DNA from: a virus
Direction: 5' to 3' (one strand)
Length of the DNA: 64,000 bases
Virus record (IMG/VR): IMGVR_UViG_3300012012_001194
Span: 37,504 to 101,503 of that record
Shown here: positions 3,094 through 60,168 of the stretch, one piece after another
Layout: each line of letters opens with the position of its first letter
Numbering within the stretch: position 1 is the stretch's first letter
The notes under the pieces: generated by a model
Databases searched by the model: none
What the model saw: the letters and a program-made list of their open reading frames with translations, nothing else
Told to the model about the DNA's origin: nothing
Made by a program: the position numbers and the translations under genes

Positions 3094-4521
3094 TTAAGCC
3101 AATACGTTATAAGCAGCCACCGCTCTACAATAACTAGACACCTGAACTTCATCCTTAGCAGCAGCTTTAATCCATTGAAGCTGGTGCACGGCATAAGCCT
3201 TAGCCAGTTCTTCATACTTTCCGTTATCATTTGCGGTCTTTTCTAGCACCGCAGGGGCTTGTACATTAGCGATAACCAGCCTTCGAACGCCAGCTTCTAA
3301 GTTATTAGGGCTAAGCGAATGAGCCGCTGCCATCTTACAAGATTCTAGGTTTTGCTTTTCGGTAGATGTTGTCTTTTCTGGATCAGAACTCTTGTCCGTC
3401 GCCTTTTCAATAGTGGAGACGTCTCCAATGAGCTTAGTGAATACGCCCGGAAGTTGTTTCTTAACTTCTTTGGCAACTTTATCGTGTCCCTTAGCCGTTA
3501 GCCAGTCTTCAACGGACACTAAAATGCCTTGCTTAGCGCAGGCGGACCATGGGTAGCTGCCATTTGCAGAGCCTTGCTTCCAAAAAGACAAGGGTTTAAC
3601 CCTGTCGTGAATTGCGGCTAGTAGTATCGGGCTGAATTCTTTGGCGGTCTTTTCTAGTTCAGCCATCTTAACGGCGACTTCGACCATTTTGCCGATGTCA
3701 GCAGAGAGGTCACCGCTTAGAACGCCAATCGAAGCACCTACTCCGGCAAGTTCAGCTAATTCTGCGCCACCAGCAACATAAACGCCAGAAGCTGCTTTGT
3801 AATGACCGACTACCCAAGCTATGCGGTCCGCTGGGCGATAAACATCGCTGATATCAAACCAAGTTGGATTAGGGTTGTCTACATGGAGAACATGGCCGTC
3901 TTCGGCTACCTTGGTCAGGTTAGCCTTGCAACCACCATACTTGCACATATCTTCGGTGCAGTACTCATCTCTGTTTCTTGCCTTATTACCACAGCCTGAG
4001 CAGACGTCATGGGCAACCTTGCAAGCCATGCTTACGCCCCAGTTATCATCCCCAGAAGCTATCTTCTGCATTTCTTTATCAGCAACTAGCCCCTTGTTAC
4101 GGGCAGCGGCTTCTTTAGTGGCGTTAAGGGCTACGATAAGTTCAACCCTCTTCATCTTCTCGTTGAACATTGAGGCTTTGACTAAGCCGTAGCTCTGTTG
4201 CGGGTCTTTGTTCTTGTGATTGCGGTACCAGCGGGCATGCTTAATAAATGTATCGTGGTATTTGCGGCAAGTGGCTTCTTTAAAACCATCACCATTACGG
4301 TTAGGGCCGTAAGCTTCCGTAGCTCCGATAGCGATCATATGAATAGGCTGTTCGCCTGGCTTAAATTCGATTCCTTTAAGGAGGTGGGCGGCTTCGTCAC
4401 CCGCCCGCTTTACGAACGAAGATAAGTCAGACCCGACTAAGCCTTTAGAAGATAATTTTATAAGGGAGCTAACTGAGTCCCCAAAGTTCTGAGAGTTTGG
4501 AGCGATAATCTTGATCATCAT
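3094..4521 (-). CDS. Putative prohead maturation protease
   Basis: N.NGD.F motif, YRNHKNKD...SYG.V, VSMACKV..DVCSGCGN with a Cys cluster, FDISDV..PAD; position in the head module. Confidence 0.6.
   Translation of the reverse strand: MMIKIIAPNSQNFGDSVSSLIKLSSKGLVGSDLSSFVKRAGDEAAHLLKGIEFKPGEQPIHMIAIGATEAYGPNRNGDGFKEATCRKYHDTFIKHARWYRNHKNKDPQQSYGLVKASMFNEKMKRVELIVALNATKEAAARNKGLVADKEMQKIASGDDNWGVSMACKVAHDVCSGCGNKARNRDEYCTEDMCKYGGCKANLTKVAEDGHVLHVDNPNPTWFDISDVYRPADRIAWVVGHYKAASGVYVAGGAELAELAGVGASIGVLSGDLSADIGKMVEVAVKMAELEKTAKEFSPILLAAIHDRVKPLSFWKQGSANGSYPWSACAKQGILVSVEDWLTAKGHDKVAKEVKKQLPGVFTKLIGDVSTIEKATDKSSDPEKTTSTEKQNLESCKMAAAHSLSPNNLEAGVRRLVIANVQAPAVLEKTANDNGKYEELAKAYAVHQLQWIKAAAKDEVQVSSYCRAVAAYNVLA
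3414..3427. repeat. Dispersed palindrome copy 1 (TGGAGACGTCTCCA)
   Basis: Inside the protease-like gene, read as IGDVST. Confidence 0.95.
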
Positions 4522-4564
4522 GGCTTATGTACCTTATGAGGTAGTTTGTTGTTTAGCTAATCGG

Positions 4565-5554
4565 TTAAGGTTTAGGCGGAGGTTGCTTTTTAACCCAATC
4601 TGCAATCAGACTATTAGCGTCGCCCACCGTGTTGCTGATAGCCCCGCCAGCGTTTGCGCCGCCAAGGAATCCAAGTATGCCTCCTGAGATGCCCCCAATA
4701 GTTTTAAGACCGCCCCTAGTGAAGCCTAATCCGTAATCTCCAAACAGCCTATCGTTATTATGAGGTACCTTGTTTATAAGGCCGGTATCCTTAGACGCTA
4801 TGTTAGTCCATGCGTTCATGCGCATCAACTCGGACTGAGATTTCTTAGCCGTAGATCTAAAGAGACGCTCTATGTCAGCAGGGACGCCGGGCCCTGTTAC
4901 TCTTGGACCTTTGAAAGCCCCAACCAAATCAAAAGCACCGGGAAGTGCTTTAGAACCAAGGTATCCGCCGCCGACGGCTCCAGTAAAGCCGCCGATGCCG
5001 ATACCTAGCTTGTTATCTTCAAATTCAGGGGAAAAAATAGGGGTTTCTTTAGCATTAGACCCCCCGTATGCCCCGCCTGGGCCTCTTCTAAGCATGTTAA
5101 TAGGATTAATTGACCAAGGCCGAGCCGGGTCGTCAGGGACGGGCTGAGTGCCGTAAGATGTTGGAGGTATTATGTGCTGGCCCTGATCATCGGTCTGTAC
5201 TGCGGCTGCAGCGTCAGGCGTTGAAAGAGCACCGATAGCGGCGCCAGGAACAGCGCCGGCAAGTGCGCCGTATAGGGCGTCACTTAGTTTTAGTTTCCTA
5301 TTCTTTAAGTACCCAACCCCTAAAGAGCCAAGTCCGCCAATACCAGCTCCGGCTGCCCCGCCAATAATCGCTCTTCTTGATTCCTCTGGCAAGTCGGCAA
5401 ATGATTTACGCACGCTATCGTACATCTCGCCAATGCCGGCGGCCTTTACATTATTAGACCTCTTAGCTGCTTGAACCTCGGCGTACTTAGTAGCCAAGAT
5501 CTCGACGGCTTCAGAAGCTGACTTGGTCATTAGAGTATCAATAAACTTAGACAT
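4565..5554 (-). CDS. Glycine-zipper membrane-type virion-associated protein
   Basis: Several GxxxG hydrophobic segments; KSAS/KYA/KAA motifs at the N-terminus. Confidence 0.6.
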   Translation of the reverse strand: MSKFIDTLMTKSASEAVEILATKYAEVQAAKRSNNVKAAGIGEMYDSVRKSFADLPEESRRAIIGGAAGAGIGGLGSLGVGYLKNRKLKLSDALYGALAGAVPGAAIGALSTPDAAAAVQTDDQGQHIIPPTSYGTQPVPDDPARPWSINPINMLRRGPGGAYGGSNAKETPIFSPEFEDNKLGIGIGGFTGAVGGGYLGSKALPGAFDLVGAFKGPRVTGPGVPADIERLFRSTAKKSQSELMRMNAWTNIASKDTGLINKVPHNNDRLFGDYGLGFTRGGLKTIGGISGGILGFLGGANAGGAISNTVGDANSLIADWVKKQPPPKP

Positions 5555-5581
5555 CGTGCGTCTCCGTAATCTAGTTATCTA

Positions 5582-6940
5582 TTATTTCTTATCGTCTTCT
5601 TTTTTCTTGGATCGTGACGACGAGCCTCTAGCCATCACATCTTTTCTTAGGCTAGAGGTGTCTGACCTAGTGTTTTCAATGTCCAGCATCTGCTGCACAT
5701 CTGTAGGATCGATAGCGGCGTTACCACCTTCAAGCCTTTTTCTCAATAACGGCCTCATAATAGAGGTGTTAGTGGAAGAGTCGGGAGCAATGTTACTGAT
5801 CTCATTAAAGTGCATAGCTACGTCTTCTGGATGGTGCGCTCCAATGATGTCGTCATTGGCCATTAAGTCGGAAATGGCGGCGCTAGACCTGATGTTTTTA
5901 AGCATCATGTCTTGAGTAAGCTGGTCATTACGAAAACCGTAATCCTTAATTTCGTTACCAATATCCGACCCGCCAGACCTAGCTGCGTCCCAAGTGGACT
6001 TAGCTCGGCTCGCCAACGTAGCTGCCTGTGGAACAGATACCCCTGCGGCTTTCTTGTCCATACCGTCTAAGACTGAGCCGGTATACTCTACAGGCAATGA
6101 GTCAGAGAAGGCTGAAGAGATGGCTGAGCTAATCACCTTCTTAAGGTAGCCCACAGAAGCCGTTTTATTTAAATGAACTTCGGCTGCTTTAATGCACCCG
6201 TGGATCAAGTTGTAGGGAGCCGCTTTAAGTTCAACAGGGGCTGCAATGTCGGCCACGGTGCCAGCTTGTTTCTTAAAGGATTTGTTTGAGCTTGAGAGGA
6301 TGTTCAGCAAGGCTTCGGCCTTCTTACCGAAGAGCCTAACGCTGTTGTTCTGAACTACGGTAAAGGGCTTACCTCCAAAGGTTCTAAAGTAGCTGGCCAG
6401 CTTATTAATGCCGTCCATCATGCGATCCCTGCTTTGGGAGGAATCCGCACGTAGCTTCTCAGAGTTTCTACCTATCTTTTCGATCAAAGAGCTGATTGCC
6501 CTAGTGTGACCTAAGCCGTCACGCTCTAAGGGACGGTATCCACCCTTATCATCGGCTAACTTAGTAAGTGGCTTTAGTCCGACCTTCTCAGGTTCTGGGG
6601 CCCGGCGATAAGCGTCAGATATCAAAGTGTCACGCAGCAGGCTAGAGGCGGTCTTGACCCTGTCTGGGTAGACCGTGTCAATAACCGTCTTAAGGTCTGC
6701 CAGCTCAAATTCAGCAAGCTTCTCTAGCGGGTCTGCCCCCGATTGCCGCTGGGTCTCACTCCTACCGGTATTGTAGGCTCGAACCATGAGCTCTAGATGG
6801 CCGACGGGTACTCCATTTGAGGACGCTGTTTTTGCCAGCGCCTCATTCGGTGAGCAACCAGAGTTTACAAGCTCGGCTACCTCACTCAAAGAGTCCGTGA
6901 TTTTTGTTTCAGCTTCTTTGCTAAGCCTTGGTGTCGCCAT
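5582..6940 (-). CDS. Hypothetical protein (K-x-A rich, probably virion-associated)
   Basis: 452 aa ORF with repeated KTAS/KLA/KQA motifs. Confidence 0.7.
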   Translation of the reverse strand: MATPRLSKEAETKITDSLSEVAELVNSGCSPNEALAKTASSNGVPVGHLELMVRAYNTGRSETQRQSGADPLEKLAEFELADLKTVIDTVYPDRVKTASSLLRDTLISDAYRRAPEPEKVGLKPLTKLADDKGGYRPLERDGLGHTRAISSLIEKIGRNSEKLRADSSQSRDRMMDGINKLASYFRTFGGKPFTVVQNNSVRLFGKKAEALLNILSSSNKSFKKQAGTVADIAAPVELKAAPYNLIHGCIKAAEVHLNKTASVGYLKKVISSAISSAFSDSLPVEYTGSVLDGMDKKAAGVSVPQAATLASRAKSTWDAARSGGSDIGNEIKDYGFRNDQLTQDMMLKNIRSSAAISDLMANDDIIGAHHPEDVAMHFNEISNIAPDSSTNTSIMRPLLRKRLEGGNAAIDPTDVQQMLDIENTRSDTSSLRKDVMARGSSSRSKKKEDDKK

Positions 6941-7862
6941 CGGCTCTGGCCTCCGGTAATTTAGTTCCTACTAATCTTTCCAATATGGACGTATCGCCGC
7001 CAGCTATCAACATAGCCTCATCAGCCCTAGGCTCCGCTGCATTAATGTCGTCATCAATCCAGCTTAGCTTATTCTTGTTATTAGCGTTTGACCCCGTGGT
7101 AACCACAGTAGACATAGCCCGCATAAAGTAATCAAGCACATTGCCGTCACCAGTGCCAGCAGCGCCTGCGGTACCGGCAGCGAGTTCTTGCTCTTTCTGG
7201 TGCATCTGCAGTAACTGTAGCTGATTCCAGCTGTTTGGAGCAACGATCTTAGAAGAATGAAGATTCTTTCTTAATAAGTTTGAGGTTATCTCGTTGTAAG
7301 CCCACTTATTAACTTCTGGATCTGCTTTATTATAAATTAGCCATTCAAGCTTCTCAGAGCCATAAAGGTAACCGTATAGCTTCCACATAACATCGAGGTC
7401 TCGCTCCGAGGCCCCAAAGAAAGCAGACTTACCAATAGCGAAGTGCATTATCCAAGAGTTGTTCTTAATACGGTCTATAACATTAAAGAATAGGCTCTCG
7501 TACCACTTTATGCATTTTGGAGACAAGTTAGACATCTCAGAGATAGATCCGATATCGCCTTGAGCTAGTATTCTAGCCTCCAGCTCCCAGCGCATGATCT
7601 TAGCTTCTGGCTGTGTATAGATTTCATAGGCATCAGCTAAAGGCTGATTTGAAAGACACTTGGCGTAGTACTCCCAAGGATCTTCAATCTTATTAAGAAG
7701 GCTAGAGAACTTCCAAGCGGCTTGAACATACTTATCGTCCTCAAACCTGTCGGGGTTGCGCTTGCTGTTAAACAAGGCGACAGCCCTTCTCCAGCGCCAG
7801 TCAACGGGTCTAACCGGACTGGCCTTTCTAAAGTTAACATATTCGGAAAGGCTAGCTTCCAT
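6921..7862 (-). CDS. Hypothetical protein
   Basis: ORF track 6921..7901; likely start MEASLSE at 7862, coupled to the upstream stop (TAATG). Confidence 0.7.
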   Translation of the reverse strand: MEASLSEYVNFRKASPVRPVDWRWRRAVALFNSKRNPDRFEDDKYVQAAWKFSSLLNKIEDPWEYYAKCLSNQPLADAYEIYTQPEAKIMRWELEARILAQGDIGSISEMSNLSPKCIKWYESLFFNVIDRIKNNSWIMHFAIGKSAFFGASERDLDVMWKLYGYLYGSEKLEWLIYNKADPEVNKWAYNEITSNLLRKNLHSSKIVAPNSWNQLQLLQMHQKEQELAAGTAGAAGTGDGNVLDYFMRAMSTVVTTGSNANNKNKLSWIDDDINAAEPRADEAMLIAGGDTSILERLVGTKLPEARADGDTKA

Positions 7863-8293
7863 TAACCAACGTCGCTCCAACCAGTGATAGCAATGTCCCA
7901 AGTAGCGGCACCTGTGCCGGAAGGGTGAATTTGCAAATAGATTCTTCGTTGTCGATCGGAAAGAGGGCCGTCGCCGTTCTTGAAAGCCCGGCCGTAATCG
8001 TCACTCATAGTAAGGTACTCACCAGAGGTTCCAGATGCGCTGGGGAATACTCGGTAAAGTTCTTGATCGTCTACATAATCGCCTTCTGGATCCGCTCCCC
8101 CAGAGGAAGAGCCGGCTGCAAACGCCTTTTTAGAATTAAAGACATCAACACTAAAGTTAACAAGAGCGTCGCCGCCAACTTGTTTAATGATGATCTTCTT
8201 AATAAACCCTTCGGAGAAGAACCCAAGCGCAAGCTGGGTAGTTTCGCCGTTGGGGGCGCTGACGCTTCGGTAGTGCTTTTCGTATATACGCAT
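7862..8293 (-). CDS. Hypothetical beta-rich protein
   Basis: 143 aa ORF with RBS GGAG. Confidence 0.7.
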   Translation of the reverse strand: MRIYEKHYRSVSAPNGETTQLALGFFSEGFIKKIIIKQVGGDALVNFSVDVFNSKKAFAAGSSSGGADPEGDYVDDQELYRVFPSASGTSGEYLTMSDDYGRAFKNGDGPLSDRQRRIYLQIHPSGTGAATWDIAITGWSDVG

Positions 8294-8304
8294 TTCTAGC
8301 TCCG

Positions 8305-11118: not shown

Positions 11119-11144
11119 CTCTGCAACAATTACAGTGGCGATTA

Positions 11145-11516
11145 TTATCTAGGTCGCATATTTAATAGGTTTCGAGTCATGCTACCGCTATTCATTAGGT
11201 CGAGCATAATTCCAAACCTTGTCGCCTGGGCCATCTTAGCATAATTACCATTCGAGGTGTTAGTGGAGACGTCTCCACTATTTACCTGAGATACGGCAGC
11301 GGCCTGATTAGATACAGAAGGCAGTAGCGTAGACGGGGCCATGGCCTGCGGAAGTGTGTTTACTTGGGCTGCGGCTTGCGGAGATGGCTTACCAGCTTTA
11401 GCAGCAGAAAGGGGAGGCGTAGCGGATGAGCCGCTGCTGGCGGCAGGCTTAGGAATCGATAAGTCTTTTGGAGAAGCGGCGCCAGCAGCTGCCCATTTAT
11501 TAAGAAAATAGCTCAT
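11145..11516 (-). CDS. Low-complexity Ala/Ser/Pro-rich protein
   Basis: 123 aa, coupled to the upstream gene; contains a 20-bp copy of the palindrome. Confidence 0.6.
   Translation of the reverse strand: MSYFLNKWAAAGAASPKDLSIPKPAASSGSSATPPLSAAKAGKPSPQAAAQVNTLPQAMAPSTLLPSVSNQAAAVSQVNSGDVSTNTSNGNYAKMAQATRFGIMLDLMNSGSMTRNLLNMRPR
11261..11280. repeat. Dispersed palindrome copy 2 (20 bp, TAGTGGAGACGTCTCCACTA)
   Basis: Inside the 123-aa ORF, read as SGDVST. Confidence 0.95.
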
Positions 11517-13435: not shown

Positions 13436-13437
13436 GA

Positions 13438-13656
13438 TTAGCCTCCAATAGTGAGCTTCTTAATGATAGGTGGTGTAATTCCATATTGTTTAAGGACACT
13501 TGCAAAATCAGCATCACCTGCTGTATAGCAGGTGATTGTGTTATCAAGGTTATCAAAGAACAAAGCGATCGGGTTATTAAAGCTGTCATAAATGACTAAC
13601 CTTGTCGCCTTCGTTATAGGGCCCGCATTAAACGAGTCATGATAATCAAGAAGCAT
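13438..13656 (-). CDS. Hypothetical protein
   Basis: 72 aa, tightly packed between its neighbours. Confidence 0.6.
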   Translation of the reverse strand: MLLDYHDSFNAGPITKATRLVIYDSFNNPIALFFDNLDNTITCYTAGDADFASVLKQYGITPPIIKKLTIGG

Positions 13657-14329
13657 TTCTTCTGTTCTTTCTTAATAAGTGAAGGATGCCTGCAGCCTTC
13701 TCACTAACGCTAAAGTTATCAGCAGCTGTCTTGATTGGTGCAGCACCTTGGTCAGGTGAAGGAGCGCCGCCTTGGTCCTGTTTCTGGCCGTCTGCACCTT
13801 GCTGGCCTTTAGGGTCATCAAGGATATCATGAGGCAAGTTAAGCCCGAGGGATGAGTAAAGATGGGTCATGAGCTTTTGAATACGGTGCATGTACACCTC
13901 AGTCTGAGCTCCGTCATTCTTCTTTACAGCACCTTTACCGCCGCCTTTTGCTTCAGCCATAGCTCGTTGCATTTCGTCTTTTACAACTGACCTAATTTGC
14001 TCTGTAGGGTCAGGAGGAGGAGGAGGGGCACCGCCCATCATGGAAGGATCCATAGGGGGAGCACCACCGGCCATAGCAGGGTCCATAGGAGGAGCACCGC
14101 CAGCCATAGCAGGATCCATAGGAGGAGCACCACCGGCCATAGCAGGATCCATAGGAGGAGCACCACCGGCCATGGCGGGATCCATTGGAGGAGCGCCTTG
14201 TGGAGGGGCGCCGCCCATAGAAGGGTCCATTGGAGGAGCTCCTGGAGGAGCGCCTGCACCCTCTGGAGGCATGAAGGCTCGCTTAACATTGAGTTGTGCC
14301 TGCTTCAAAAGATACTTGTTGATAGCCAT
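13646..14329 (-). CDS. Hypothetical protein with MDPAMAGGAPP repeats
   Basis: 227 aa; KQA/KRA at the N-terminus; tandem 11-aa repeat. Confidence 0.7.
   Translation of the reverse strand: MAINKYLLKQAQLNVKRAFMPPEGAGAPPGAPPMDPSMGGAPPQGAPPMDPAMAGGAPPMDPAMAGGAPPMDPAMAGGAPPMDPAMAGGAPPMDPSMMGGAPPPPPDPTEQIRSVVKDEMQRAMAEAKGGGKGAVKKNDGAQTEVYMHRIQKLMTHLYSSLGLNLPHDILDDPKGQQGADGQKQDQGGAPSPDQGAAPIKTAADNFSVSEKAAGILHLLRKNRRNAS
14045..14197. repeat. 33-bp coding tandem repeat (about 4.5 units)
   Basis: Units resembling AGGATCCATAGGAGGAGCACCACCGGCCATAGC, with synonymous variation. Confidence 0.9.
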
Positions 14330-14378
14330 GTTAATTACCCTTCTTATATGTTTAAAACGTTAATTGCCGTTATCGTCA

Positions 14379-16729: not shown

Positions 16730-18223
16730 TTACTCTTTACTTCCAATTTGTTTAAGCAAATTAAGGAATTGCTCATTTAATTCCTGCTTTCTATTAGCGG
16801 CAGAAATCAAATAGTCATCCGTAGCTGGTACTGGATCTGCTCCAACACCCACATATCTCAACATAGATCTTAGCCTACCGGGGGCTGTCCTAGCTATGTA
16901 TCTTTCTATTTGAACCTTCCTATCTTCTATAGGGAGGTGCTCATGGCTATCAAAGCGCAAAGCCCTTCCTTCACTCTGACTACTCCTAGCAGTGTTCCAA
17001 TGCGGGTCTAATAGCTGAACTAGCTTAGTTCCCTTAAAGGAAAGACCCTCAGTTCCAGACGGGCCTAAGAGCGCAACCTTAAGCTTGTCGGTATTGTAGT
17101 CGTCTACTAAGCGCTTACGCTCTTTATCAGATAGGGCGCCCGTGAAAGAGGCAGCTGGAATGCCAGCTCGGTCTAGCGCCGCTTGATAAGGGGAAAGCCC
17201 AGCATCAATGAAGTTGGAGAAGATCAGGGCTTTGCCCTTGGGGTCTTTATCCAAGAGCCCTTTAAGATTACTAAAGGCAGTGGTCAGCTTGGGCGAGTCA
17301 TCAAATGCCTTTTGGACATCTTTGTTACCCTTCATAAATGGAAGAGTAGAAAGACCTACCTGTCTCAGCCCCGTCATGAAGCTGGTCATTCGGCTGACCT
17401 CTTCCTGCGTCAGCGGGTAATTCATCTTGAGCTTCCATCGAAGCGCAGCAGGAAGCTGCCCCATCATGTAGCTGTTAAGGTCGGTCTGGTTTTGGCTCAT
17501 CTCTACGACGACGTCTTTGCGGTTAATCTCAGCTTTGGGAGCCAGAGGTGCAAAGTAATCCACCTTCCCTTGAAGCTTGTTTTTAAGCTGATCTTGGTTG
17601 ATGATCGATGGCTCGCCGGGAGCCCCGTTGAAGATGCGCTTGTACCACGGCTGCTTGGGAGCCTCATCCATGTACATGTTACCGAACTCTTCAGGGCTCA
17701 TGTCCTCGCCAGTGAGGATGTTATAAGGCACTGTGAAGTCGCTTGGGTCGTTAACTACTGGTGTGCCCGTGAGAAGCACCACCTGCCTAGCCTTTCTAGC
17801 AGCTTCTACTAGGTTCTTGGCTTGAGCCGAGTTTGGATTACGGAAGCGATGAGCCTCATCTACTAAGAGGGAGCCTGGGTTCTCAATCGTACGGCCAAGC
17901 GCTACTCCGGTGTGGCTCATGATGCTACTTGGCGTAGCAGTTGGTTGATCAATAAACTTTTCCTGCTCCTTACGTAAGTTGTTACGTAGAGAAGCTGGAA
18001 CTACAGCGGTGTAAGGTATTTTTGACTCGTCTGCTGCAGCTAAGCCGCTTAGTGTTTTTCCAGACCCAAGGCTGTGATAAAGCAACATACGAGCTTTGCC
18101 AGCTGTGTCTAACTGTTTCTGTACCTTATCTACTACTCCCTGCTGGTGCGGCTGCAGCGAGATATTAGGATTAAGGTCAGCCTGTTTTGTGGAGACGTCT
18201 CCACTAATGTAGTCTTGGGTCAC
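16730..18223 (-). CDS. SNF2-family (SF2) helicase/ATPase
   Basis: Q-motif LQPHQ, Walker A HSLGSGKT, DEAH, LLTGTP, EGLS, QSEGRALR. Confidence 0.9.
   Translation of the reverse strand: MTQDYISGDVSTKQADLNPNISLQPHQQGVVDKVQKQLDTAGKARMLLYHSLGSGKTLSGLAAADESKIPYTAVVPASLRNNLRKEQEKFIDQPTATPSSIMSHTGVALGRTIENPGSLLVDEAHRFRNPNSAQAKNLVEAARKARQVVLLTGTPVVNDPSDFTVPYNILTGEDMSPEEFGNMYMDEAPKQPWYKRIFNGAPGEPSIINQDQLKNKLQGKVDYFAPLAPKAEINRKDVVVEMSQNQTDLNSYMMGQLPAALRWKLKMNYPLTQEEVSRMTSFMTGLRQVGLSTLPFMKGNKDVQKAFDDSPKLTTAFSNLKGLLDKDPKGKALIFSNFIDAGLSPYQAALDRAGIPAASFTGALSDKERKRLVDDYNTDKLKVALLGPSGTEGLSFKGTKLVQLLDPHWNTARSSQSEGRALRFDSHEHLPIEDRKVQIERYIARTAPGRLRSMLRYVGVGADPVPATDDYLISAANRKQELNEQFLNLLKQIGSKE
18189..18204. repeat. 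Dispersed palindrome copy 3 (16 bp)
   Basis: 5' end of the SNF2 gene. Confidence 0.95.
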
Positions 18224-24849: not shown

Positions 24850-26145
24850 TTATTGGCCAAAGAATCCAGGCACCACTGCCTTAATAGCCCCCGCTACAAC
24901 GCCTGCGCCCTGCAGCGTTCTTTGAGCCTGCGGAGTCAAGCCTACCAAAGCGCCTAAGACTTTGCCACCTAAAGTAGCTTGCACATACCCAGCGCCCATA
25001 CCTAGGCCGACCCTAGCAATGTCCATCGGAGTTATGAAGCCAGTGTTACCCCGCATGTTATTAGCGGCCCCTACTACGCCCATCGTAGCTGCCTGCAAAT
25101 ACGATGGAGTGAACGGGTCATTTAAAACTAAGCGGTTAAAGGCGTCAACTGGTACCGGCTCTAAACCAAAGATTGATTGATTGTTATTAAAGAAGTCAGC
25201 AGCTTTGCTCATCTCGCTAGAGATACTAGGCTGCAGCTCTGCTAAAGCTTGAGAAGCCTTAATGATTGGAGGCGTAGTATGCGGGTTGCCATAGAGCACG
25301 TTAGGAGTAGTAAAGGCGTTCCACGCACTAGACTTGCGATCTGGGTTTAGCTTATTATCCCAAGTAGAAGCTCCAAGTACTCCAAGCGCCGCGCCGGGAG
25401 CAGCTCCAAGAGCGCCGCCAAGCATAGCTAAGCGCTTACGCAACTTACCTTTCTCAAATACATTAGGGGCAACGTTCTCAGCTATAGTTCCAGCACCGTA
25501 GCCAAGGCCTGCTGCAAGAGTGCCGCCGGCTACCATCGATGCAAGAGGTGTTGGACCCCCAAAGCGGCTAGCAAAGCTGGAGGGCGTAATCATAGCCATT
25601 TGAGAGATGGGCCTAAGGATGCTAGATATAGTAGCGCTGGCAGACTTTACTAAAATCCAAGGGTGCTCAAGGTTGGGCCGGCTGACTTTATTAGCCACGC
25701 CTTGCTTAGTCAAGAAAGTGGAGACGTCTCCACTGGGGACTAACACCTTACCTGAAACTGGGCTGAGCCAAGCGTGCATATTAGGTGAGAGGGCCCTAGC
25801 TATCTTTTCGTAAAGCTTTTTTGATGATGAGATGTAGGTGCTTATAAGCTCGGGCACATGCTGCCACGCTAAATCTTCAGCAATTTTGTTCAGACCTTCT
25901 TGCCTAGAAACAGTGTAAGGGATAATATCCCTAGGTGCGTGGACTTTAAATGCCGTTGGGACGTGCGTTACCCCTACAAACTTCTTATTAAGATCAGAAT
26001 CAATGACGAAATCCTCTGGCCTTTCCATGAAGAGCTTCCTCAATATTTTGTTCTTTTCGTGATAGTTACGGTCGTCCGACATCTGCTTCGCTAGAAGAAG
26101 CTGGTGCAGGTCGGCCTTTGGGTTGCGTTCTGTCTCTAGCTGCAT
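24850..26145 (-). CDS. Hypothetical modular protein with glycine-zipper segments
   Basis: Likely start MQLETER at 26145, after GGAGG; KIA/KSAS/KAS/KAA junctions. Confidence 0.65.
   Translation of the reverse strand: MQLETERNPKADLHQLLLAKQMSDDRNYHEKNKILRKLFMERPEDFVIDSDLNKKFVGVTHVPTAFKVHAPRDIIPYTVSRQEGLNKIAEDLAWQHVPELISTYISSSKKLYEKIARALSPNMHAWLSPVSGKVLVPSGDVSTFLTKQGVANKVSRPNLEHPWILVKSASATISSILRPISQMAMITPSSFASRFGGPTPLASMVAGGTLAAGLGYGAGTIAENVAPNVFEKGKLRKRLAMLGGALGAAPGAALGVLGASTWDNKLNPDRKSSAWNAFTTPNVLYGNPHTTPPIIKASQALAELQPSISSEMSKAADFFNNNQSIFGLEPVPVDAFNRLVLNDPFTPSYLQAATMGVVGAANNMRGNTGFITPMDIARVGLGMGAGYVQATLGGKVLGALVGLTPQAQRTLQGAGVVAGAIKAVVPGFFGQ
25717..25734. repeat. Dispersed palindrome copy 4 (18 bp)
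   Basis: Inside 24850..26145. Confidence 0.95.
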
Positions 26146-26265
26146 TACAAAGATCCTCCACCCCGATGGTACCAATTCTTGGCTAATCAAGCCATAGTTG
26201 GATGTCGTTTGGAAGGAATTATGTTTAAGTCTGGAATGTATCAACACATACGGAGGTCATCACCA

Positions 26266-28524: not shown

Positions 28525-28529
28525 TGTCT

Positions 28530-28581
28530 GATAGCTAAAAAAAAGAACCTCCATGTCCCGAAGGACTGGAGGTTCTTTTTT
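28530..28581. terminator. Bidirectional intrinsic terminator T1 with conserved TAGCTATC tail on the minus strand
   Basis: GAACCTCCA-TGTCC-CGAA-GGAC-TGGAGGTTC flanked by A8 and T6 tracts, between convergent nrdJ and cassette 1. Confidence 0.9.
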
Positions 28582-32829: not shown

Positions 32830-32843
32830 TGGAGACGTCTCCA
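32830..32843. repeat. Dispersed palindrome copy 5
   Basis: Abuts the TAG stop of 32844..33455. Confidence 0.95.
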
Positions 32844-35959: not shown

Positions 35960-35973
35960 TGGAGACGTCTCCA
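35960..35973. repeat. Dispersed palindrome copy 6
   Basis: Abuts the TAG stop of 35974..36273. Confidence 0.95.
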
Positions 35974-43670: not shown

Positions 43671-43686
43671 GTGGAGACGTCTCCAC
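43671..43686. repeat. Dispersed palindrome copy 7 (16 bp)
   Basis: Overlaps the TAG stop of 43686..44789. Confidence 0.95.
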
Positions 43687-44799: not shown

Positions 44800-46986
44800 T
44801 CAATAAGAATTAAAATTACCTAACTGCTTTAAAGTAGCGGAGAGCTTGATAAGGCTGCGGTTACGCATAGCCTCATAAGGGTCTCCTTCCATTCCAAGGG
44901 TCTGTGCCCATGCCGGCTCTGTGCCCATGCCATCTTGCTTTAGCTTGGAAGCGGCACTTACCAGTTCTGGATGCTGCTTAGCCAGAGAGTTGGCCACGTC
45001 CCTATGGGCTCTTGACCTCTCTATGAAGTCTGGATTGTCGGTAGCGTATAGCCCTACCTTCCTACCATACCCTGGAATGTTATATATAGACCTTTGATCT
45101 TTGTGCTCCGCCGTAGTTCCCTTGGGAAGCTTGTCCATAAGCCTATTATATTCAGGGCTCACGTACCCCACATCCACATCAGATAGGCCCCTTACATCAG
45201 GAAGGCCCCCGCTGACATGGTGAAGCTGGTCTCCATAGCCCTCGCCCATGTCCTTAACGAATTGGTGATACACTTCATCCTGAGAGGGGGTGGCAGCAAG
45301 CTTACTTACTGGTGACGCGGACATGGCTAGAGACTGAAGATGCTGCAAAGCTTTTAGCCTAGCAGCAGCAGCTGCGGGAGCCATGTAGTTAGTGTTGTTG
45401 TTCATGATATCAATAGCCTCAGCTGGGGTGTAGTAACCCCTGTTGGAGGCATTCCAGACATCTAAGTTCTTGTTACCTCTTCGGCCAGCAGCGTCCGCTA
45501 AAACAAAGTGTGTCCTGGACCCGGCAAAATTGCGCTTAACCTTGGCCCTATGAGCATCGCTCCAAGGGTGGTCTACGGGATCGATAGGTAGCAACCTCGG
45601 ATTCTTAGCCGTAATACCTGTCTCTTCCTTAAGCTCTCTCAAAGCAGCTACTAAAGGATCTTCCCCTGCTTCAATTCCTCCGCCTGGTAAGGCAAAGGAC
45701 TTGTCGCTATCCCAAGTGCCCCCATAGATCTTGCCTTTGGGGTTCTGAGTATAAACCTCAACCCTGTCTCGCCATGGGAGATCGCTAGCGGATAGCTTTA
45801 AAAGACTAGCAAGCTTGCTTACGGGCAGCGCTTCATCAAACTCAATATACTTAGAAGGTATCTTTCCCATAGGGGTAACGACGTGTGCGTGTGGAACGTC
45901 TGATGCGTAATACTTACCTTCTGTGTCCTTAAAGTCTTTCCACATGTCTTTTGGGTTTTGGCCCCTAGCTATCAAAGACTTAATCTCTTCAGGCGATAGA
46001 GTATGATGTCGTTTATTTACAAATTCATTCTGCCCTTTTTCGTCTAAGGCATCATAAGTCTCATCTGAGAACGGAATCAATTCGCTACCTTCCAGCTTGG
46101 TAGTGGGGTAGTCCTTCAATAGCTCATGTAAGTTAATTCTAGCTCTAGTAGTATCAAACCTCTTGATTGGGTGCTTATCGTGGATCTTCTCAGGGTCTGT
46201 GTCACCAAACAAAGCGGAAGGGCCATTATAGGAGGTTGTCCACGGAGACTTAGCTAGTCTTTCATCCCGTTCTTTGAGCCACCTGTCTGCATCACCATTA
46301 GGTCTGGCTATATCTAGCAAGTGTCTGTTCTCGGGTTTTGCTAACTCGTTACCTGATAACAGTCCGTGCTCTTTTACATTCTTAATAGATCCAGATGGAA
46401 TATAAGAGTGTAAATACATTGGATCCTCAGCTACGCCTGCCAGCTTACTCACCTCATTATCCTCAGTAACTTTCTTCTTCTTACACCCTACTGGGATATA
46501 GAACCCAAGTTGTGGAGACGTCTCCAATCCGTAGCTTCGTCGGATGGACTCTAGGTCATCGCTCTTAATAGAGATAGCCCATAGCTTGTCATAGTCACCG
46601 GTTGCAGGCAACTCAACTATAGGGCCAAGAGTGTAGTGATAAGAATGCCCTCGCTCAGTGATATGACTAGTGCCGCCTAGCTTGTCCACCTCTTCCTTGG
46701 TCATGACCTTGATAGCGCACTCAGTTCTATTGTTGCGCACAACGAATTCAGCCCCTGGCTCATCAAGGGCGTCAAAAACGCCTTTGATAAGCGAAGAGGG
46801 GACTGTTAGTTCTAGGTTGCCACTAGGACCTGCTTGAAGCCTACCTGCGAGAGCGTGCACTGAAGTATGATCTGCGTTCTTGTTCATGTATCCGTGAGAC
46901 TGCCCGTAAGTGAACATTTCAGCGTTGAGAGCTTTAAGCCACTCAGCGCCTTTGATGATTCCTAAAGATAGCGGGGGCATGGTCAT
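44800..46986 (-). CDS. Four-domain polyprotein: degenerate 2H-phosphoesterase-like / ART-like / Nudix hydrolase / nucleotidyltransferase-like
   Basis: Clear Nudix box GGGIEAGEDPLVAALRELKEETG; other domains are tentative; domains are separated by repeated VSKLA linkers. Confidence 0.65.
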   Translation of the reverse strand: MTMPPLSLGIIKGAEWLKALNAEMFTYGQSHGYMNKNADHTSVHALAGRLQAGPSGNLELTVPSSLIKGVFDALDEPGAEFVVRNNRTECAIKVMTKEEVDKLGGTSHITERGHSYHYTLGPIVELPATGDYDKLWAISIKSDDLESIRRSYGLETSPQLGFYIPVGCKKKKVTEDNEVSKLAGVAEDPMYLHSYIPSGSIKNVKEHGLLSGNELAKPENRHLLDIARPNGDADRWLKERDERLAKSPWTTSYNGPSALFGDTDPEKIHDKHPIKRFDTTRARINLHELLKDYPTTKLEGSELIPFSDETYDALDEKGQNEFVNKRHHTLSPEEIKSLIARGQNPKDMWKDFKDTEGKYYASDVPHAHVVTPMGKIPSKYIEFDEALPVSKLASLLKLSASDLPWRDRVEVYTQNPKGKIYGGTWDSDKSFALPGGGIEAGEDPLVAALRELKEETGITAKNPRLLPIDPVDHPWSDAHRAKVKRNFAGSRTHFVLADAAGRRGNKNLDVWNASNRGYYTPAEAIDIMNNNTNYMAPAAAAARLKALQHLQSLAMSASPVSKLAATPSQDEVYHQFVKDMGEGYGDQLHHVSGGLPDVRGLSDVDVGYVSPEYNRLMDKLPKGTTAEHKDQRSIYNIPGYGRKVGLYATDNPDFIERSRAHRDVANSLAKQHPELVSAASKLKQDGMGTEPAWAQTLGMEGDPYEAMRNRSLIKLSATLKQLGNFNSY
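46513..46526. repeat. Dispersed palindrome copy 8
   Basis: Inside the polyprotein, read in a different frame (LETSP). Confidence 0.95.
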
Positions 46987-55761: not shown

Positions 55762-58692
55762 CTATTCTTCCTCATCTTCAGGTAGTTCATCCGACCCCTT
55801 AGAACTCATAGACATAGACAGGGCTATGGCAGCCGGGACGCTAATACCGCCAGCTATTAAAGCCTTTTGTAGCGAAGTCAGTCCAGCCTTTGCTGCATTA
55901 GCCTGTGCGCTGGCGCCTGCCCCGTCTTGAGCATTAGGGGTGTCAACTCCTTTAGCCTTTAACAGAGCCTTCAAGTTTGATATGGCATTCATAGGATTTA
56001 GCTTTGACTTTGTCTCTGGGCTAAATTGACGATAGGCGACCCCTGCTGGATACGCCGCTGTGTACCCCAAGTCACTAATGCCATAACCTACAGGGTTGAG
56101 CATGCCAGAACCCAAGTTGTAAGCCCCTTCACCTACCGACTTAACAAAGTTGGGTGAGGGCCCCGGCAACGGGGGCTTTGGAGGATTAAACTTCCCAGCC
56201 ATTTCTTTAGCAAATTGCTGCGCTCCGGTAAGTGCCTTAGGGGCTGCCTTGACTGCGTTAGGCAATACCTTAGGAGCAAGGGAGGCAGCCTCCCTTGGAA
56301 TAAGCAGGTTAGCAAGGCCCTTAGCAGCATTAGTGCTTCCTTGGCTGATGCCTCTGGCCATCATGCCCACGCCAGGCGCTAAAGTGGCCCCAAGAACATC
56401 ACCATAAGGGTCACGGTTATCACGGTTAATATACTGCCCCATACCAGGTCCGCCTGCTGCGCCGTAGACTGACCCCTTTGCTATACTGTTGGCTAACGTC
56501 CATTGTGGAGTAAGACTCATAGCGCCGTATATCGGGGCTAGCACTGCTGATAAGCGACTGCCTTTACCCGCATCTGTTATAAGCTGACTCATAGTGCTAG
56601 GGCCGTTTAGCTCATAGTCCTTACCTCCTGACAAGGCCCCACTCACGGTAGATACGGCACCAGTCAATTTATCTCTCTCTGCCCTGAGCTGAGGTATCAT
56701 CTTGAGCCTAGCCGGGTCTCCTGATGCGATAGCTGCAGTTATGCTTTGATTGTATCCCTTGATCCTATCACCCTTCTCAGCCATAAAGTTGCCGCCATTG
56801 ATAACTTGATCGACATTACCAAGGTTTCCAAGTACCTTGTTAGTGGGCTTTCCAAAGTTAGCAAGTGCGTTAACCGTGTCAGCTGCTTCGCCTACAGGCT
56901 GTACAGCGCCTAGGCCAAAGTTCTCTTGAAAGTTGCGTACGGCGCTGTCTGATTGCCCAACCCCCGTCTGCCTAAAAGCATCAGCGCTACCAACTGCTGC
57001 GCTGGCTTCTCCGTTTCCAGTTAAAACATCGGCCCTGTACCTTAGCTGAGATAAGAGGCCTGGAGGTAAGGCTTTGATCTTATCTTGGTACTCAGGCGGT
57101 AGCATCTTAACTCTCTGCTCGAACGTACGAGAATCAAGTGTATTGCCTAAGACATTCATAAGATTTATTGGCTGGCCCCCCATAAAGCCGGGGATAGCTA
57201 CTGGCCCGAGGATCTCTTCGTGCTGCTTGTAGATTGATTCATCTAGGGTTTGGATCTTGCTGGCTATGGCTAGGGAGTTGGGATCCTTAGACTGCCTAAG
57301 CATATTAATCGTATCCGCCTTGCGAGCATAAGGCATGTTAAGCACGGCGTTAGACTGCTGCTCTGGGGGTAGCTGCGAGAAGTTGTTAGCCAACTGCTGA
57401 TTCTTAACATTATAGTTTAACTGTCGGCCTATAGTGTAAGGCGACTTGGGATCGGAGCTTGGAGCTGCGTCTAAATTGATTAGATTAAGCCCATTGGCGA
57501 ACTCTGCTATTGGCCTGTCAGGATCGTCGAATAACCTAGCTTTACTACCTGTCTCAAAGGCGCCATAAAGGTCCCCCTTAGCTGGGGCTGGCCCATTAGC
57601 GCCAAACTTAGACTCTAGCTTGTCTAGGAAGTAGGGAACTTCCGATGCGTCCATTGGTTTGGTAGGGAACGCTTTGTTATATTGTTCGGCAAACGCATTT
57701 ACTGCCGCAGGCTCATAGTTTTTACCTAGATAACCATTATAGTTTGTTTTTGTGTAGTTTGGAGAGTCAAGTGAGTAGTCAGCCGCTATCGTAGCCGGAG
57801 TAATGTTAGGCTTAGCCAAGGGGTTAGGAGTCGCAACAGGCGCAAAAGGATTAACAAAGGGTGCCGCTGGCTTAGCCTCAACAGGTGCCGTAGGCTGTGA
57901 CAGCATACTGGCCCTTGATACCGTTGCAGGCGCTGGTGCTGGCTGCTTAGTAGCTAAAGAAGAAGGTGGGCCCATCATCTCGGGCATAGAGGGAGCGGCT
58001 GGCATTGAAGGGGGCGCCAACATACTAGCCCTTGAGACAGTTGCGGGGGCTGGAGTTGGGGCTGGAGTTGGGGCTGGAGTTGGGGCTGCCGCTTCGTTTG
58101 TAGCCTCAGACTTATTCTTAATCATGCCTTTAAGCTTGTCGATACCAGTGGTGACTTTGTCCTTAACACCAGTAGCAACACTAGACACTTGCTTGCCTAT
58201 GTTAGAGAAGATATTGTCCTGCCCCTCAGGCGGCTTGAAGCCTTTAGCAATAGTACTGTACAAGTTCTTAGATGCGTCCATGATCTTGTTAGACGCTTCA
58301 GGTACGTAAGACTGCAACGTTGAGGCTAAACCGCTGAGGTCAGCTTGCTTGGTAGTGGAGACGTCTCCACTGCGTGTAGTGTACGGCCGCTCAGTGTACG
58401 CAGGCGTACGGTAGCCCTGTGTTTTTATGTAAGAAGAAGGTATGTAAGGGGTTACGTCGTCGAAGGAGGCTGATTTATTCACATTAGCACTTAACGGCCC
58501 TTTAAGCAACTCCGTTTGAGCTAAAAATCTATTATCTTCTCTTTGACCTAACCTCTTTGCTGGAGGGGGCTTAGCAGAAATGTCTTTAGGGCTTATCGAA
58601 GAATGTCGAAAAGATCCAGACTGACCTAGCCCACTGCCTAGTGCGCCTAATGTAGCAATAGCCGCTTGCTTACGGCTCTCTTTAAGGGACAT
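55762..58692 (-). CDS. Large A/P/G-rich protein (possible virion/ejection protein)
   Basis: 976 aa; KQAA/KSAS/KQA near the N-terminus; PAPT repeats; hydrophobic C-terminus. Confidence 0.7.
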   Translation of the reverse strand: MSLKESRKQAAIATLGALGSGLGQSGSFRHSSISPKDISAKPPPAKRLGQREDNRFLAQTELLKGPLSANVNKSASFDDVTPYIPSSYIKTQGYRTPAYTERPYTTRSGDVSTTKQADLSGLASTLQSYVPEASNKIMDASKNLYSTIAKGFKPPEGQDNIFSNIGKQVSSVATGVKDKVTTGIDKLKGMIKNKSEATNEAAAPTPAPTPAPTPAPATVSRASMLAPPSMPAAPSMPEMMGPPSSLATKQPAPAPATVSRASMLSQPTAPVEAKPAAPFVNPFAPVATPNPLAKPNITPATIAADYSLDSPNYTKTNYNGYLGKNYEPAAVNAFAEQYNKAFPTKPMDASEVPYFLDKLESKFGANGPAPAKGDLYGAFETGSKARLFDDPDRPIAEFANGLNLINLDAAPSSDPKSPYTIGRQLNYNVKNQQLANNFSQLPPEQQSNAVLNMPYARKADTINMLRQSKDPNSLAIASKIQTLDESIYKQHEEILGPVAIPGFMGGQPINLMNVLGNTLDSRTFEQRVKMLPPEYQDKIKALPPGLLSQLRYRADVLTGNGEASAAVGSADAFRQTGVGQSDSAVRNFQENFGLGAVQPVGEAADTVNALANFGKPTNKVLGNLGNVDQVINGGNFMAEKGDRIKGYNQSITAAIASGDPARLKMIPQLRAERDKLTGAVSTVSGALSGGKDYELNGPSTMSQLITDAGKGSRLSAVLAPIYGAMSLTPQWTLANSIAKGSVYGAAGGPGMGQYINRDNRDPYGDVLGATLAPGVGMMARGISQGSTNAAKGLANLLIPREAASLAPKVLPNAVKAAPKALTGAQQFAKEMAGKFNPPKPPLPGPSPNFVKSVGEGAYNLGSGMLNPVGYGISDLGYTAAYPAGVAYRQFSPETKSKLNPMNAISNLKALLKAKGVDTPNAQDGAGASAQANAAKAGLTSLQKALIAGGISVPAAIALSMSMSSKGSDELPEDEEE
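58354..58371. repeat. Dispersed palindrome copy 9 (18 bp)
   Basis: Inside the 976-aa gene, read as SGDVST. Confidence 0.95.
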
Positions 58693-59688: not shown

Positions 59689-59748
59689 ACCATTAGCACC
59701 TCATTAAAGATTAGTTACTTAGATCATACCCTAGATGAGGGAGTGGCT

Positions 59749-59800
59749 GATAGCTAAAAAAAGAACCAGAGGCTTACCCGTGAAGGTAAGCTTCTAGTTT
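59749..59800 (-). terminator. Intrinsic terminator T4
   Basis: AGAGGCTTACC-CGTGAA-GGTAAGCTTCT hairpin, U7 tract, TAGCTATC tail. Confidence 0.85.
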
Positions 59801-59950: not shown

Positions 59951-60035
59951 GTTAATCTCCTAAAGAATGAGTAGAACAACCCACAAAAAGTTCGTAGGTT
60001 TGGCCCCGTTTTTACAGGTACGGGTAACCATTATA

Positions 60036-60063
60036 TTATGACGCACTTAGAGGTTGAATTAAG
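60036..60063 (-). promoter_or_regulatory. Bipartite promoter-like motif P4
   Basis: TTATGACGC-N12-AATTAAG on the + strand. Confidence 0.75.
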
Positions 60064-60150
60064 CTGCGACGAAAAAAGGTCGCTGGCGACGAAACGTAAC
60101 TCACCCGTAACTCACCCGTAACTCAGATGCCTTGTTACGTGTTCGATGTG

Positions 60151-60168
60151 AGTGGAGACGTCTCCACT
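60151..60168. repeat. Dispersed palindrome copy 10 (18 bp)
   Basis: Intergenic, between T5 and P4. Confidence 0.95.

Follow-up and report, generated by a model that had tools for sequence, protein, structure and literature searches.

A perfect 14-bp palindrome dispersed over the genomes of related freshwater jumbo phages is conserved at the nucleotide level

The palindrome TGGAGACGTCTCCA occurs ten times in the 64-kb window, the whole stretch of viral DNA analysed here; the 101.5-kb contig has 14 copies and no near-misses. Purifying selection on the 14-mer is strict and acts at the nucleotide level. The density of the sites is held even by turnover, with loss in one lineage and gain a few kb away in another. 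Judged from sequence comparison, the palindrome may be the docking site of a symmetric, sequence-specific dsDNA-binding protein that acts genome-wide, with selection for site density; this is the reading that we tentatively put first.

The cores start at positions 3414, 11264, 18190, 25719, 32830, 35960, 43672, 46513, 58356 and 60153 of the window. These are the positions given in a preliminary description of this DNA, and all ten copies are exact, with no one-mismatch copy among them. Shuffled sequence yields 0.02 palindrome matches compared with the ten in the window, and an order-2 Markov model predicts 0.003 copies of the 12-mer core contig-wide, where 14 are found. The dyad reaches 18-20 bp through the flanks, as (T)AG-core-CT(A). 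There is no accessory element or second motif beyond +/-3 nt of the palindrome. Meta-profiles of GC content, GC skew and AT skew are flat over +/-3.5 kb around the sites, with no AT-rich flank. A replication origin array was rejected, since the strand-composition switch or AT-rich unwinding element expected of it was not found at the sites. An assembly or adapter artefact, which the preliminary description had raised as a worry, is excluded by the presence of the motif in more than 10 independent IMG/VR contigs and by Logan contigs from lake metagenomes that span sites 25719 and 32830 (the metagenome evidence consists of assembled contigs of public runs).

The motif is present 8-26 times, single mismatches included, in at least six related lineages of uncultured freshwater jumbo phages with 62-70% amino-acid identity. 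Over 12 orthologous site groups and 58 lineage pairs the 14-mer is 100% identical, compared with 46-54% for its flanks. Synonymous sites are saturated between the lineages and the site positions are still kept; of the 14 sites in the contig, 10 have orthologues in lineages B and C alike, and 13 have them in one other lineage or more. Placement across lineages covers all three reading frames as well as intergenic DNA. Since the 14-mer is invariant next to flanks near saturation, in three frames and at non-coding positions, selection acts on the DNA and not on the peptide, as had been proposed. Relatives that keep the peptide with synonymous changes, which would point to selection on the protein, were not seen; the relatives keep the nucleotides exactly.

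Where an orthologous position lacks the motif, length and reading frame are unchanged and the differences are substitutions only. The sites were created in place by point substitution, not by in-frame or other insertion. New sites appear in variable protein parts or beside stop codons. A mobile palindromic element (a REP or MITE-like insertion) was rejected, since there is no presence/absence indel at orthologous positions. The motif was not found in outgroup phages whose RNA polymerase is 41-57% identical. One of these distant relatives, G007, has a different dispersed palindrome, TCTCGCGCGAGA, in 6 exact copies compared with 0.001 expected.

Six of the ten window copies are within ORFs, in two frames that read GDVST (3414, 11264, 18190, 25719 and 58356) or LETSP (46513), and four are between genes, three of them right after a TAG stop (32830, 35960 and 43672) and one beyond a terminator tail (60153); the ORF positions bear out the earlier placement. 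The copy at 3414..3427 is in ORF 3094-4521 (minus strand, 475 aa), where it reads I-G-D-V-S-T, and has exact orthologous copies in lineages B (G001 50125), C (G002 126857) and D (G011). The copies at 11264..11277 (ORF 11145-11516, minus, 123 aa) and 25719..25732 (ORF 24850-26247, minus, 465 aa) both occur in the S-G-D-V-S-T frame; each is exact in B and C and has one mismatch in D. Site 25719 is also the junction of a strain variant without 25735-28528 (a ribonucleotide reductase cassette), in which 25734 is joined to 28529 in Logan contigs from two runs. The copy at 18190..18203 covers codons 7-12 of an SNF2-like ATPase gene (16730-18223, minus), 22 nt past the stop of the RNA polymerase beta/beta' gene. 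It is exact in B, has two mismatches in D and is missing in C without an indel; lineage C has a new one-mismatch site 3.1 kb off, within the polymerase gene. The copy at 46513..46526 is in the L-E-T-S-P frame of ORF 44800-46986 (minus, 728 aa, Nudix domain) and is exact in B, C and D, while the outgroup orthologues have unrelated sequence of equal length at this place. The copy at 58356..58369, in the G-D-V-S-T frame of ORF 55762-58692 (minus, 976 aa), is exact in C (G002 and G005) and missing in B, where a separate site is found about 2.9 kb off.

The intergenic copy at 32830..32843 directly follows the TAG stop of ORF 32844-33455 and precedes a PhoH-like gene (32125-32775, minus) by 54 nt; it is exact in B and C and has one mismatch in D. 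The copy at 35960..35973, right after the TAG stop of ORF 35974-36273, adjoins the AAGGAG ribosome-binding site of an 81-aa ORF (35703-35948), with a C39-like peptidase gene next, and is exact in B and C. The copy at 43672..43685, right after the TAG stop of ORF 43686-44789, is lineage-specific, with none at the corresponding place in B or C. The last copy (60153..60166) is 5 nt past a terminator whose conserved tail consists of a T-run and ATCTATCAG, upstream of an ORF-free stretch. The arrangement of terminator tail and palindrome recurs in lineage B (G001 106712 and 107242; G003 74808).

The preliminary description had the sites often about 7-8 kb apart; counted over the contig and its relatives, they are under-dispersed. 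The gap CV is 0.52 in the contig (P = 0.008), where randomly placed sites would give 0.94, and four related genomes have CVs of 0.46-0.59 (P <= 0.017). When the gaps are pooled, their median is 7,768 bp and 33 of 91 are within 7-9 kb; the spacing becomes more regular when one-mismatch sites are counted as sites. One long interval is filled at different positions by different lineages. No long-range phase-locked period was found and site-free gaps of 13-25 kb occur, suggesting that the density requirement is soft.

The pattern of mismatches bears on the kind of molecule that reads the site. The mismatches sit at half-site positions 2, 5 and 6, and positions 1, 3, 4 and 7 are almost never hit. 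There is no covariation among 33 one-mismatch and 13 two-mismatch copies, and none of the 13 has a double change that keeps the palindrome. The perfect dyad through the centre, the lack of compensatory changes and the fact that one half-site can bear a single mismatch suggest that the reader is dimeric. The earlier proposal of dimeric binding agrees with this, as the pattern would fit a symmetric dimer on dsDNA and not a hairpin. The palindrome would then be a dedicated dsDNA recognition site for a homodimeric sequence-specific protein. The reader is most likely encoded by the phage, beyond recognition by current family models, since a single phage clade has the motif and none of the bacterial genomes sampled contains it as a repeat. 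Both the even spacing and the location of sites in genes suggest a chromosome-scale purpose, not a gene-by-gene one; with about one site per 7-8 kb kept over nearly the whole ~200-kb chromosome, the reader would act genome-wide. Its action could be to nucleate spreading or sliding, to form loops by bridging sites, or to label the DNA as self. However, all 14 positions are conserved, including the centre, as would be more usual for an enzyme than for a helix-turn-helix repressor. At the level of pure inference, the process served could be segregation, condensation, packaging, ejection or protection, as listed in the preliminary description.

A more specific form of the docking reading, which we regard as doubtful, is a ParB-independent jumbo phage organiser. 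A dimer would read an 18-bp palindrome, with sites held about 7.8 kb apart by selection ("spacing homeostasis"). The genome, ~200 kb long and transcribed almost entirely in one direction, would be split into loops or topological domains, or the sites would load a protein that covers it. Other clades would have other palindrome-protein pairs, as the second palindrome in G007 hints.

The analogy with parS and ParB made in the preliminary description is left without its protein. Six-frame searches of G000, G001 (92% complete), G002, G003 and G005 with ParB_N (PF02195) gave no match at E <= 0.01, while the control search matched 11 of 14 reference genomes. HTH_3 and RHH_1 were likewise not found in six-frame searches, so these searches did not yield the ParB, RHH or HTH protein that had been anticipated, and no candidate reader emerged. 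The palindrome matches the parS consensus only in its central ACGT. HNH is present only in some genomes and is absent from G000 and G001. Pfam scans of G001 ORFs (210 in batches and 8 singly) gave, among the matches listed, no DNA-binding family besides sigma-factor domains, and no topoisomerase, recombinase, integrase or transposase. The clade-specific conserved proteins examined are peptidases, PhoH, an SNF2 ATPase and an endonuclease V-type glycosylase, or have no family match.

It is unlikely that the palindromes are nuclease sites, either cut by a terminase dimer at the first site met when the head is nearly full, or nicked on both strands by a virion-DNA nickase like those of T5, phiKMV and tf. 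The terminase version, site-specific headful packaging with self-complementary ends, shares this low standing. The invariance of all 14 positions, including the central ACGT, is like that of nuclease recognition sites. The large terminase matches the lambda gpA ATPase family (E = 4.5e-11), and lambda gpA, the model member, nicks a symmetric site; however, the outgroups have a homologous large terminase (47% identity) without having the motif. A spacing of 7-8 kb corresponds to about 4% of the genome, which is in the range of a headful tolerance, but the gaps of 13-25 kb would need an implausible tolerance of the head. There are 23-26 sites per genome, and none has a special place relative to the large terminase gene, which in G001 is at 170827-172692 with the closest sites at 163795 and 174093. 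Junctions of strain variants and loose ends do occur at motif edges (18188, 25715, 25734 and 35981), although contigs of many samples assemble across the sites and no contig end, which is an assembly end and not a true DNA end, falls at a site. Besides the HNH result given above, no other nuclease stands out. Site-specific nicks with a 9-19 bp consensus are found in other phages, but the known nick sites are asymmetric and on one strand only (PMC3517423). In T5, phiKMV-like phages and tf, the single-strand interruptions have a scattered sequence of 7-19 bp which is read by a phage enzyme with some substitutions tolerated (PMC3517423). The palindrome is similarly conserved, scattered and tolerant of single substitutions at some positions; being a perfect palindrome, it differs from the asymmetric one-strand consensus of the known localized nick sites.

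A host reader is improbable. The sites would be copies of an operator that a host regulator or defence factor binds, gathered by the phage either to recruit this protein or, as a decoy, to titrate it away while the genome multiplies. A shared host factor would be expected to leave the motif identical in lineages 30-38% apart in protein, as it is, and the motif is missing in outgroups that possibly have other hosts; a phage-encoded reader was also not found. However, a search of genomes from 185,579 species of bacteria and archaea with the 16-mer gave 72 hits, all single and scattered over unrelated phyla at about chance level, and none phage-like. A decoy also needs no even spacing within genes.

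Slightly less probable again is that the sites are recombination hotspots or module boundaries, where breaks or strand exchange swap ~7-kb segments between co-infecting relatives or move cassettes. The variant deletion 25735-28528 is right beside site 25719 and recreates the lineage B arrangement of terminator tail, CATAG and palindrome. In BLAST alignments, 3 of 52 ends are no more than 15 nt from a site, compared with 0.31 expected (P = 0.003), and further comparisons give 2 of 60 (P = 0.047) and 2 of 52 (P = 0.045); however, the enrichment comes from a small, recurring set of intergenic sites at which conserved genes border variable ones, and other genome pairs have no enrichment. Cluster O mycobacteriophages have deletions between dyad repeats (PMC4351075), but the lack of a recombinase, integrase or transposase among the listed G001 matches is against this role. 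A palindromic crossover site would also invert or delete within the genome, but synteny is kept, and recombination at the sites may be a by-product of 14-20 bp of identity.

A role in transcription or RNA, as promoter, pause or roadblock for the phage's own polymerase or as an RNA hairpin for processing or stability, is the least probable. The phage encodes its own multisubunit RNA polymerase and sigma factors, four of the ten window sites are intergenic (three right after stops, one between a terminator and a promoter-like box), and the site RNA would fold to a 5-8 bp hairpin of -5.3 to -10.9 kcal/mol. However, the majority of sites are genic, at conserved codons, and cleavage or termination in SNF2, Nudix-domain and structural genes would harm. 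The loop and every stem base are invariant with no covariation in the mismatched copies, no T-run follows the site, and the even kb-scale spacing has no obvious RNA rationale. An intrinsic terminator or structured RNA was rejected on these grounds: no compensatory stem changes, a loop that is not free to vary and no T-run. The phage's own terminators, well defined and with a conserved tail, and its promoter-like boxes are distinct from the palindrome. The view that a conventional operator is unlikely stands, since most sites are within genes at conserved positions and separate signals exist; a promoter or terminator role is unlikely on the same grounds.

Among described cases, the palindrome is closest to the 17-bp dyad repeat of the Cluster O mycobacteriophages, Corndog and its relatives, an invariant dyad-symmetric sequence that occurs more than 30 times per genome (PMC4351075). 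The repeats are between and within genes, mostly far from promoters, at positions mostly common to relatives; they are lost through single base changes, have indels at the repeats and are absent from host genomes (PMC4351075). The same source assigns no function to them, and its authors suggest a dimeric protein (PMC4351075). Even spacing and compensating turnover, as found here, are not among the Cluster O features noted from that account (PMC4351075). The palindrome belongs to the same descriptive class, which has no known mechanism: an invariant dyad in tens of copies, genic and intergenic, at positions common to relatives and not a bacterial repeat. The two repeats share no sequence similarity, and they differ in that the dyad is uninterrupted here and has a 3-bp spacer there, with a density of one site per 7-8 kb compared with about one per 2 kb. 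Unlike Cluster O, the phages that carry the motif here are ~200-kb jumbo phages with their own RNA polymerase.

Cluster A stoperators also have many copies of a short site bound by one phage protein with genome-wide action. They are asymmetric, oriented with transcription and located in short intergenic gaps of temperate phages, whereas the site here is palindromic and mostly genic, and no integrase or repressor was seen. In KorB/OB of plasmid RK2 (16-bp) and in the ParB-parS CTP clamps, a dispersed palindrome loads a dimer which slides to kb distance (PMC11790492). The palindrome resembles these in being short and dispersed over the replicon, and its perfect 14 bp, extended to 18-20 bp, agree with the 13-16 bp of such loading sites. 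Clamp loading and sliding of this type would explain why density, and not exact position, matters. However, none of the five genomes searched has the ParB N-terminal CTPase domain that defines these clamps, and the OB sites of KorB are upstream of promoters (PMC11790492) while the sites here are mostly in coding sequence.

Large phages must fold, protect, transcribe and package ~200 kb of DNA, and sequence-specific phage chromosome organisers are almost undescribed. Here unrelated genes have come to contain one 14-bp word, and pay for it with fixed amino acids. Since the word stays letter-perfect amid changing surroundings, and lost copies are replaced with the spacing kept even, there is strong evidence for an important DNA-level function, which no annotated protein explains. 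The reader, if found, would either represent a new DNA-binding family or give a nuclease or terminase a new role, and it would also help with similar unexplained repeats in mycobacteriophages and other large phages.

The window has ten copies of the palindrome TGGAGACGTCTCCA, a perfect 14-bp dyad with a 12-mer core, and every one is exact in a search that allowed up to one mismatch; shuffled sequences are expected to contain 0.02. These are the ten copies listed in the preliminary description, with none extra. The window covers bases 37,504-101,503 of a 101.5-kb IMG/VR virus contig (G000). Over its whole length this contig contains 14 copies, all exact, and no further ones at one or two mismatches; an order-2 Markov model predicts 0.003 copies of the 12-mer core. 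On the minus strand the dyad widens to (T)AG-core-CT(A), with an A at position -2 in 14/14 copies, and no conserved element further out than this extended dyad was found within +/-30 nt of the sites. The initial gene placement was also accurate. Six window copies are in ORFs, in two frames (five G-D-V-S-T and one L-E-T-S-P), three are directly 3' of a TAG stop and the remaining one comes after a terminator.

CheckV rates G000 as 49% complete, which puts the full genome at probably about 200 kb. Almost all of its genes are on the minus strand and they encode a fused beta/beta' RNA polymerase subunit (1,491 aa), a second RNA polymerase subunit, a SNF2-like ATPase, a class II ribonucleotide reductase and a PhoH-like ATPase (window 32125-32775, minus strand). 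Lineage B has a copy of this PhoH-like protein with 97% identity, versus a genome average of about 70%, and no homologue was found in four outgroup phages. Megablast with 20 kb of query found no near-identical phage in GenBank. A search of IMG/VR with the exact 18-mer returned 34 stretches in 12 contigs. Grouped by protein identity and alignable DNA, the motif-bearing contigs form at least six lineages: A (G000), B (G001, G003, G004 and G012), C (G002 and G005), D (G011), E (G013) and F (G014). Protein identity between lineages is 62-70%, and alignable DNA is about 69% identical. All lineages come from lake or freshwater samples, and parts of the window are present in contigs from runs of 17 lake or freshwater studies.

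Scans of the whole records gave exact and one-mismatch sites, respectively, of 23 and 3 in G001 (190 kb), 14 and 7 in G002 (181 kb), 10 and 1 in G003 (75 kb), 9 and 6 in G005 (102 kb), 8 and 10 in G011 (137 kb), 9 and 1 in G012 (82 kb), 5 and 3 in G013 (75 kb) and 4 and 6 in G014 (68 kb). The most complete relative, G001 (92%), encodes two sigma-domain proteins, a family A DNA polymerase of 1,068 aa with an N-terminal uracil-DNA-glycosylase-like (UDG-like) domain (137812-141018), a DnaB-like helicase, a Rad50-like ATPase, a gpA-type large terminase, a MoxR/VWA pair, CsrA and many glycosyl- and methyltransferases. It also contains 14-mers such as CAAGGCTATCAAGG and CAAGGAAACCAAGG 25-34 times, which is probably a highly repetitive coding region. 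Since G002 continues through the point where the G001 contig stops, the genome map is circular or permuted.

Mapping by the flanks finds orthologous positions for 10 of the 14 G000 sites in both B and C; if a match in any one other lineage is enough, the number is 13. Over 12 orthologous groups and 58 lineage pairs, every position of the 14-mer has an identity of 1.00, whereas identity is 0.6-0.9 at the three nucleotides on each side and 0.46-0.54 over the next 42 nt outward. Across the clade the palindrome is read in all three frames (W-R-R-L-H/Q is also used) and occupies non-coding positions. Selection therefore cannot be aimed at the peptide and acts on the palindrome as DNA, as the preliminary description had claimed. 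The same description left a choice between a conserved site and an in-frame insertion; alignment of orthologous genes shows the exact 14-mer kept, and lineages with and without a site have equal length and frame and differ by substitutions only. A mobile palindromic insertion is thus excluded. In the polymerase gene, for example, lineage C has TAGAGACGTCTCCA, A has TAGAGACGTGAACA and B has TAGAGACGTCAATA. The aligned codons of outgroup orthologues are unrelated but collinear, or the segment is too variable for alignment, and these orthologous codons have no common motif.

The tolerated mismatches are concentrated at half-site positions 2, 5 and 6 (29/33) and hardly ever fall at 1, 3, 4 or 7, a pattern that would be expected for base-specific contacts by a symmetric dimer. 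The palindrome could plausibly be a genome-wide docking site for a symmetric protein that binds double-stranded DNA, with site density under selection.

The preliminary description had proposed a count of copies and spacing beyond the window; besides the 14 copies in G000, this gives further lineages with the motif and gaps more even than random. With exact and one-mismatch sites combined, the coefficient of variation of the gaps is 0.46-0.59, compared with about 0.95 for random placement. The evenness is significant in each of five genomes (P <=0.017; <1e-4 in G001). Adding one-mismatch sites lowers the coefficient from 0.61 to 0.46 in G005 and from 0.65 to 0.59 in G002; since counting them makes the spacing more regular, these copies behave as working sites. 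Pooled over six lineages, in which some of the gaps are inherited in common, the gaps have a median of 7,768 bp, and 33 of 91 are in the 7-9 kb range. Beyond what the gap distribution predicts, the sites show neither a long-range phase-locked period nor a strict periodic lattice.

Site turnover across the lineages keeps the density. The site following the polymerase gene is lost in C, which has a new site 3.1 kb off, and the site of a 976-aa gene is missing in B, which has one about 2.9 kb off. A 15-kb interval without sites in A and C has one site in B and another in D, 3.4 kb apart, and in a 17-kb interval between two ancestral sites each of the lineages B to F has a site, placed at one of four positions. 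Site-free gaps of 13-25 kb exist; therefore, the density constraint is soft. In B and C, one such palindrome-free stretch, 20-25 kb long (G001 185063-190371 plus 1-14862; G002 66807-92269), runs across a hypervariable region made up of small opposite-strand genes. The G001 stretch includes about 7 kb of such ORFs without homologues in the other lineages.

The likeness to parS had led to the expectation of a ParB-type protein or another ParB/CTPase, RHH or HTH protein. This expectation failed, as six-frame profile searches of motif-bearing genomes with working controls found no ParB_N, HTH_3 or RHH_1. The system would work like KorB/ParB loading sites, but it is not a family member because it lacks the defining domain. 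G002 does not have the Sigma70_r4 protein that G001 encodes. Pfam and PHROGs scans covered 210 G001 ORFs in batches, and 8 more and about 30 chosen ORFs singly. Among the matches listed for G001, these scans show no DNA-binding family other than sigma domains, and the Pfam scans no recombinase, topoisomerase, MatP, TetR or similar protein. One G001 product (164694-165158) with the PHROG label 'DNA binding protein' is, judging from its Atlas neighbours, an endonuclease V-type pyrimidine-dimer glycosylase; the PDB contains no relative. Two small basic 'ORFs' adjoining the terminase gene look non-protein-like.

Phylogenetic profiling gave about 70 ORFs common to the clade and missing from four outgroups, with no clear reader candidate among them. 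The ones inspected comprise peptidases, PhoH, the SNF2 ATPase, the endonuclease V-type glycosylase, a cupin, a holin-like protein and others with no family match. The PhoH gene and an 81-aa ORF behind site 35960 each have an invariant intergenic site a short way upstream. The 81-aa product resembles hypothetical viral proteins only, and neither product looks like a DNA binder. That the protein is encoded by the host is quite improbable.

A strain variant in lake-metagenome contigs from two runs joins 25734, two bases past site 25719, to 28529. The lost segment, 25735-28528, comprises the ribonucleotide reductase gene together with ~170 codons from the start of the adjacent 465-aa ORF, and the junction recreates the 'terminator tail-CATAG-palindrome' order known from lineage B. 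Loose contig ends at 18188, 25715 and 35981 fall at the edges of three sites. It is possible, if unlikely, that the palindrome is cut or nicked; HNH domains are present in only some of the motif-bearing genomes. BLAST alignment ends between lineages show a mild excess at sites, mostly the same intergenic ones, and a role as a recombination hotspot is very unlikely. These breakpoints would reflect a side effect or a secondary role of the sites and do not prove a recombination function. The closest described phenomenon is the 17-bp dyad repeat of Cluster O mycobacteriophages, which is described without a known function and at whose copies indels of the same kind as this variant occur (PMC4351075). 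Literature searches found nothing relevant on evenly or regularly spaced phage palindromes, and matches to the motif string were unrelated, on a bacterial actin-like protein.

A transcription or RNA signal is highly improbable: the hairpin is modest (-5 to -11 kcal/mol), none of the 33 one-mismatch and 13 two-mismatch copies has a compensatory change that restores pairing, and the phage's own terminators differ, although in a few places the palindrome lies between a terminator and a promoter-like box. These terminators consist of a GC hairpin, a T-run and a conserved tail, AGCTATCA (once ATCTATCA), often followed by the promoter-like box; they are on the minus strand at window ~28529-28575, 29074-29120, 30516-30560, 59748-59800 and 60172-60215. 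In the relatives the box that often comes after a terminator is conserved, CTTAATYCAACC..ATAAGTGCGTCATAAT, and these units are short self-contained cassettes. A replication origin is rejected, as the sites show no local change in GC content, GC skew or AT skew. A host repeat is also rejected: unrelated bacterial genomes contain the 16-mer in 72 stretches, with a single copy in each, which is near the chance level, and no match is phage-like.

Outgroup phages with 41-57% identity in the large polymerase subunit, including two complete genomes of 205 and 197 kb, have no copies within one mismatch and a single chance-like copy at two mismatches. No enriched palindrome of any kind was found in three of four outgroups. 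One complete outgroup genome, G006, carries TTCGGAAACTCCGAA seven times close to its two ends (1152-2097 and 203004-203421) and two dense arrays of GCGGGGCCAACCTT with a spacing of 15-75 bp (168114-169085 and 197672-197837). The fourth outgroup, G007, is a 92.7-kb contig fragment of a distant relative (polymerase 44% identical) with a different 12-bp palindrome, TCTCGCGCGAGA, in six exact copies (14664, 24520, 28327, 46482, 62729 and 91150), versus 0.001 expected, and one near copy (8503). These copies are usually followed by AA, and their gaps of 4-28 kb are not obviously regular. The palindrome feature is specific to the clade, and a second, unrelated palindrome is present in a distant cousin.
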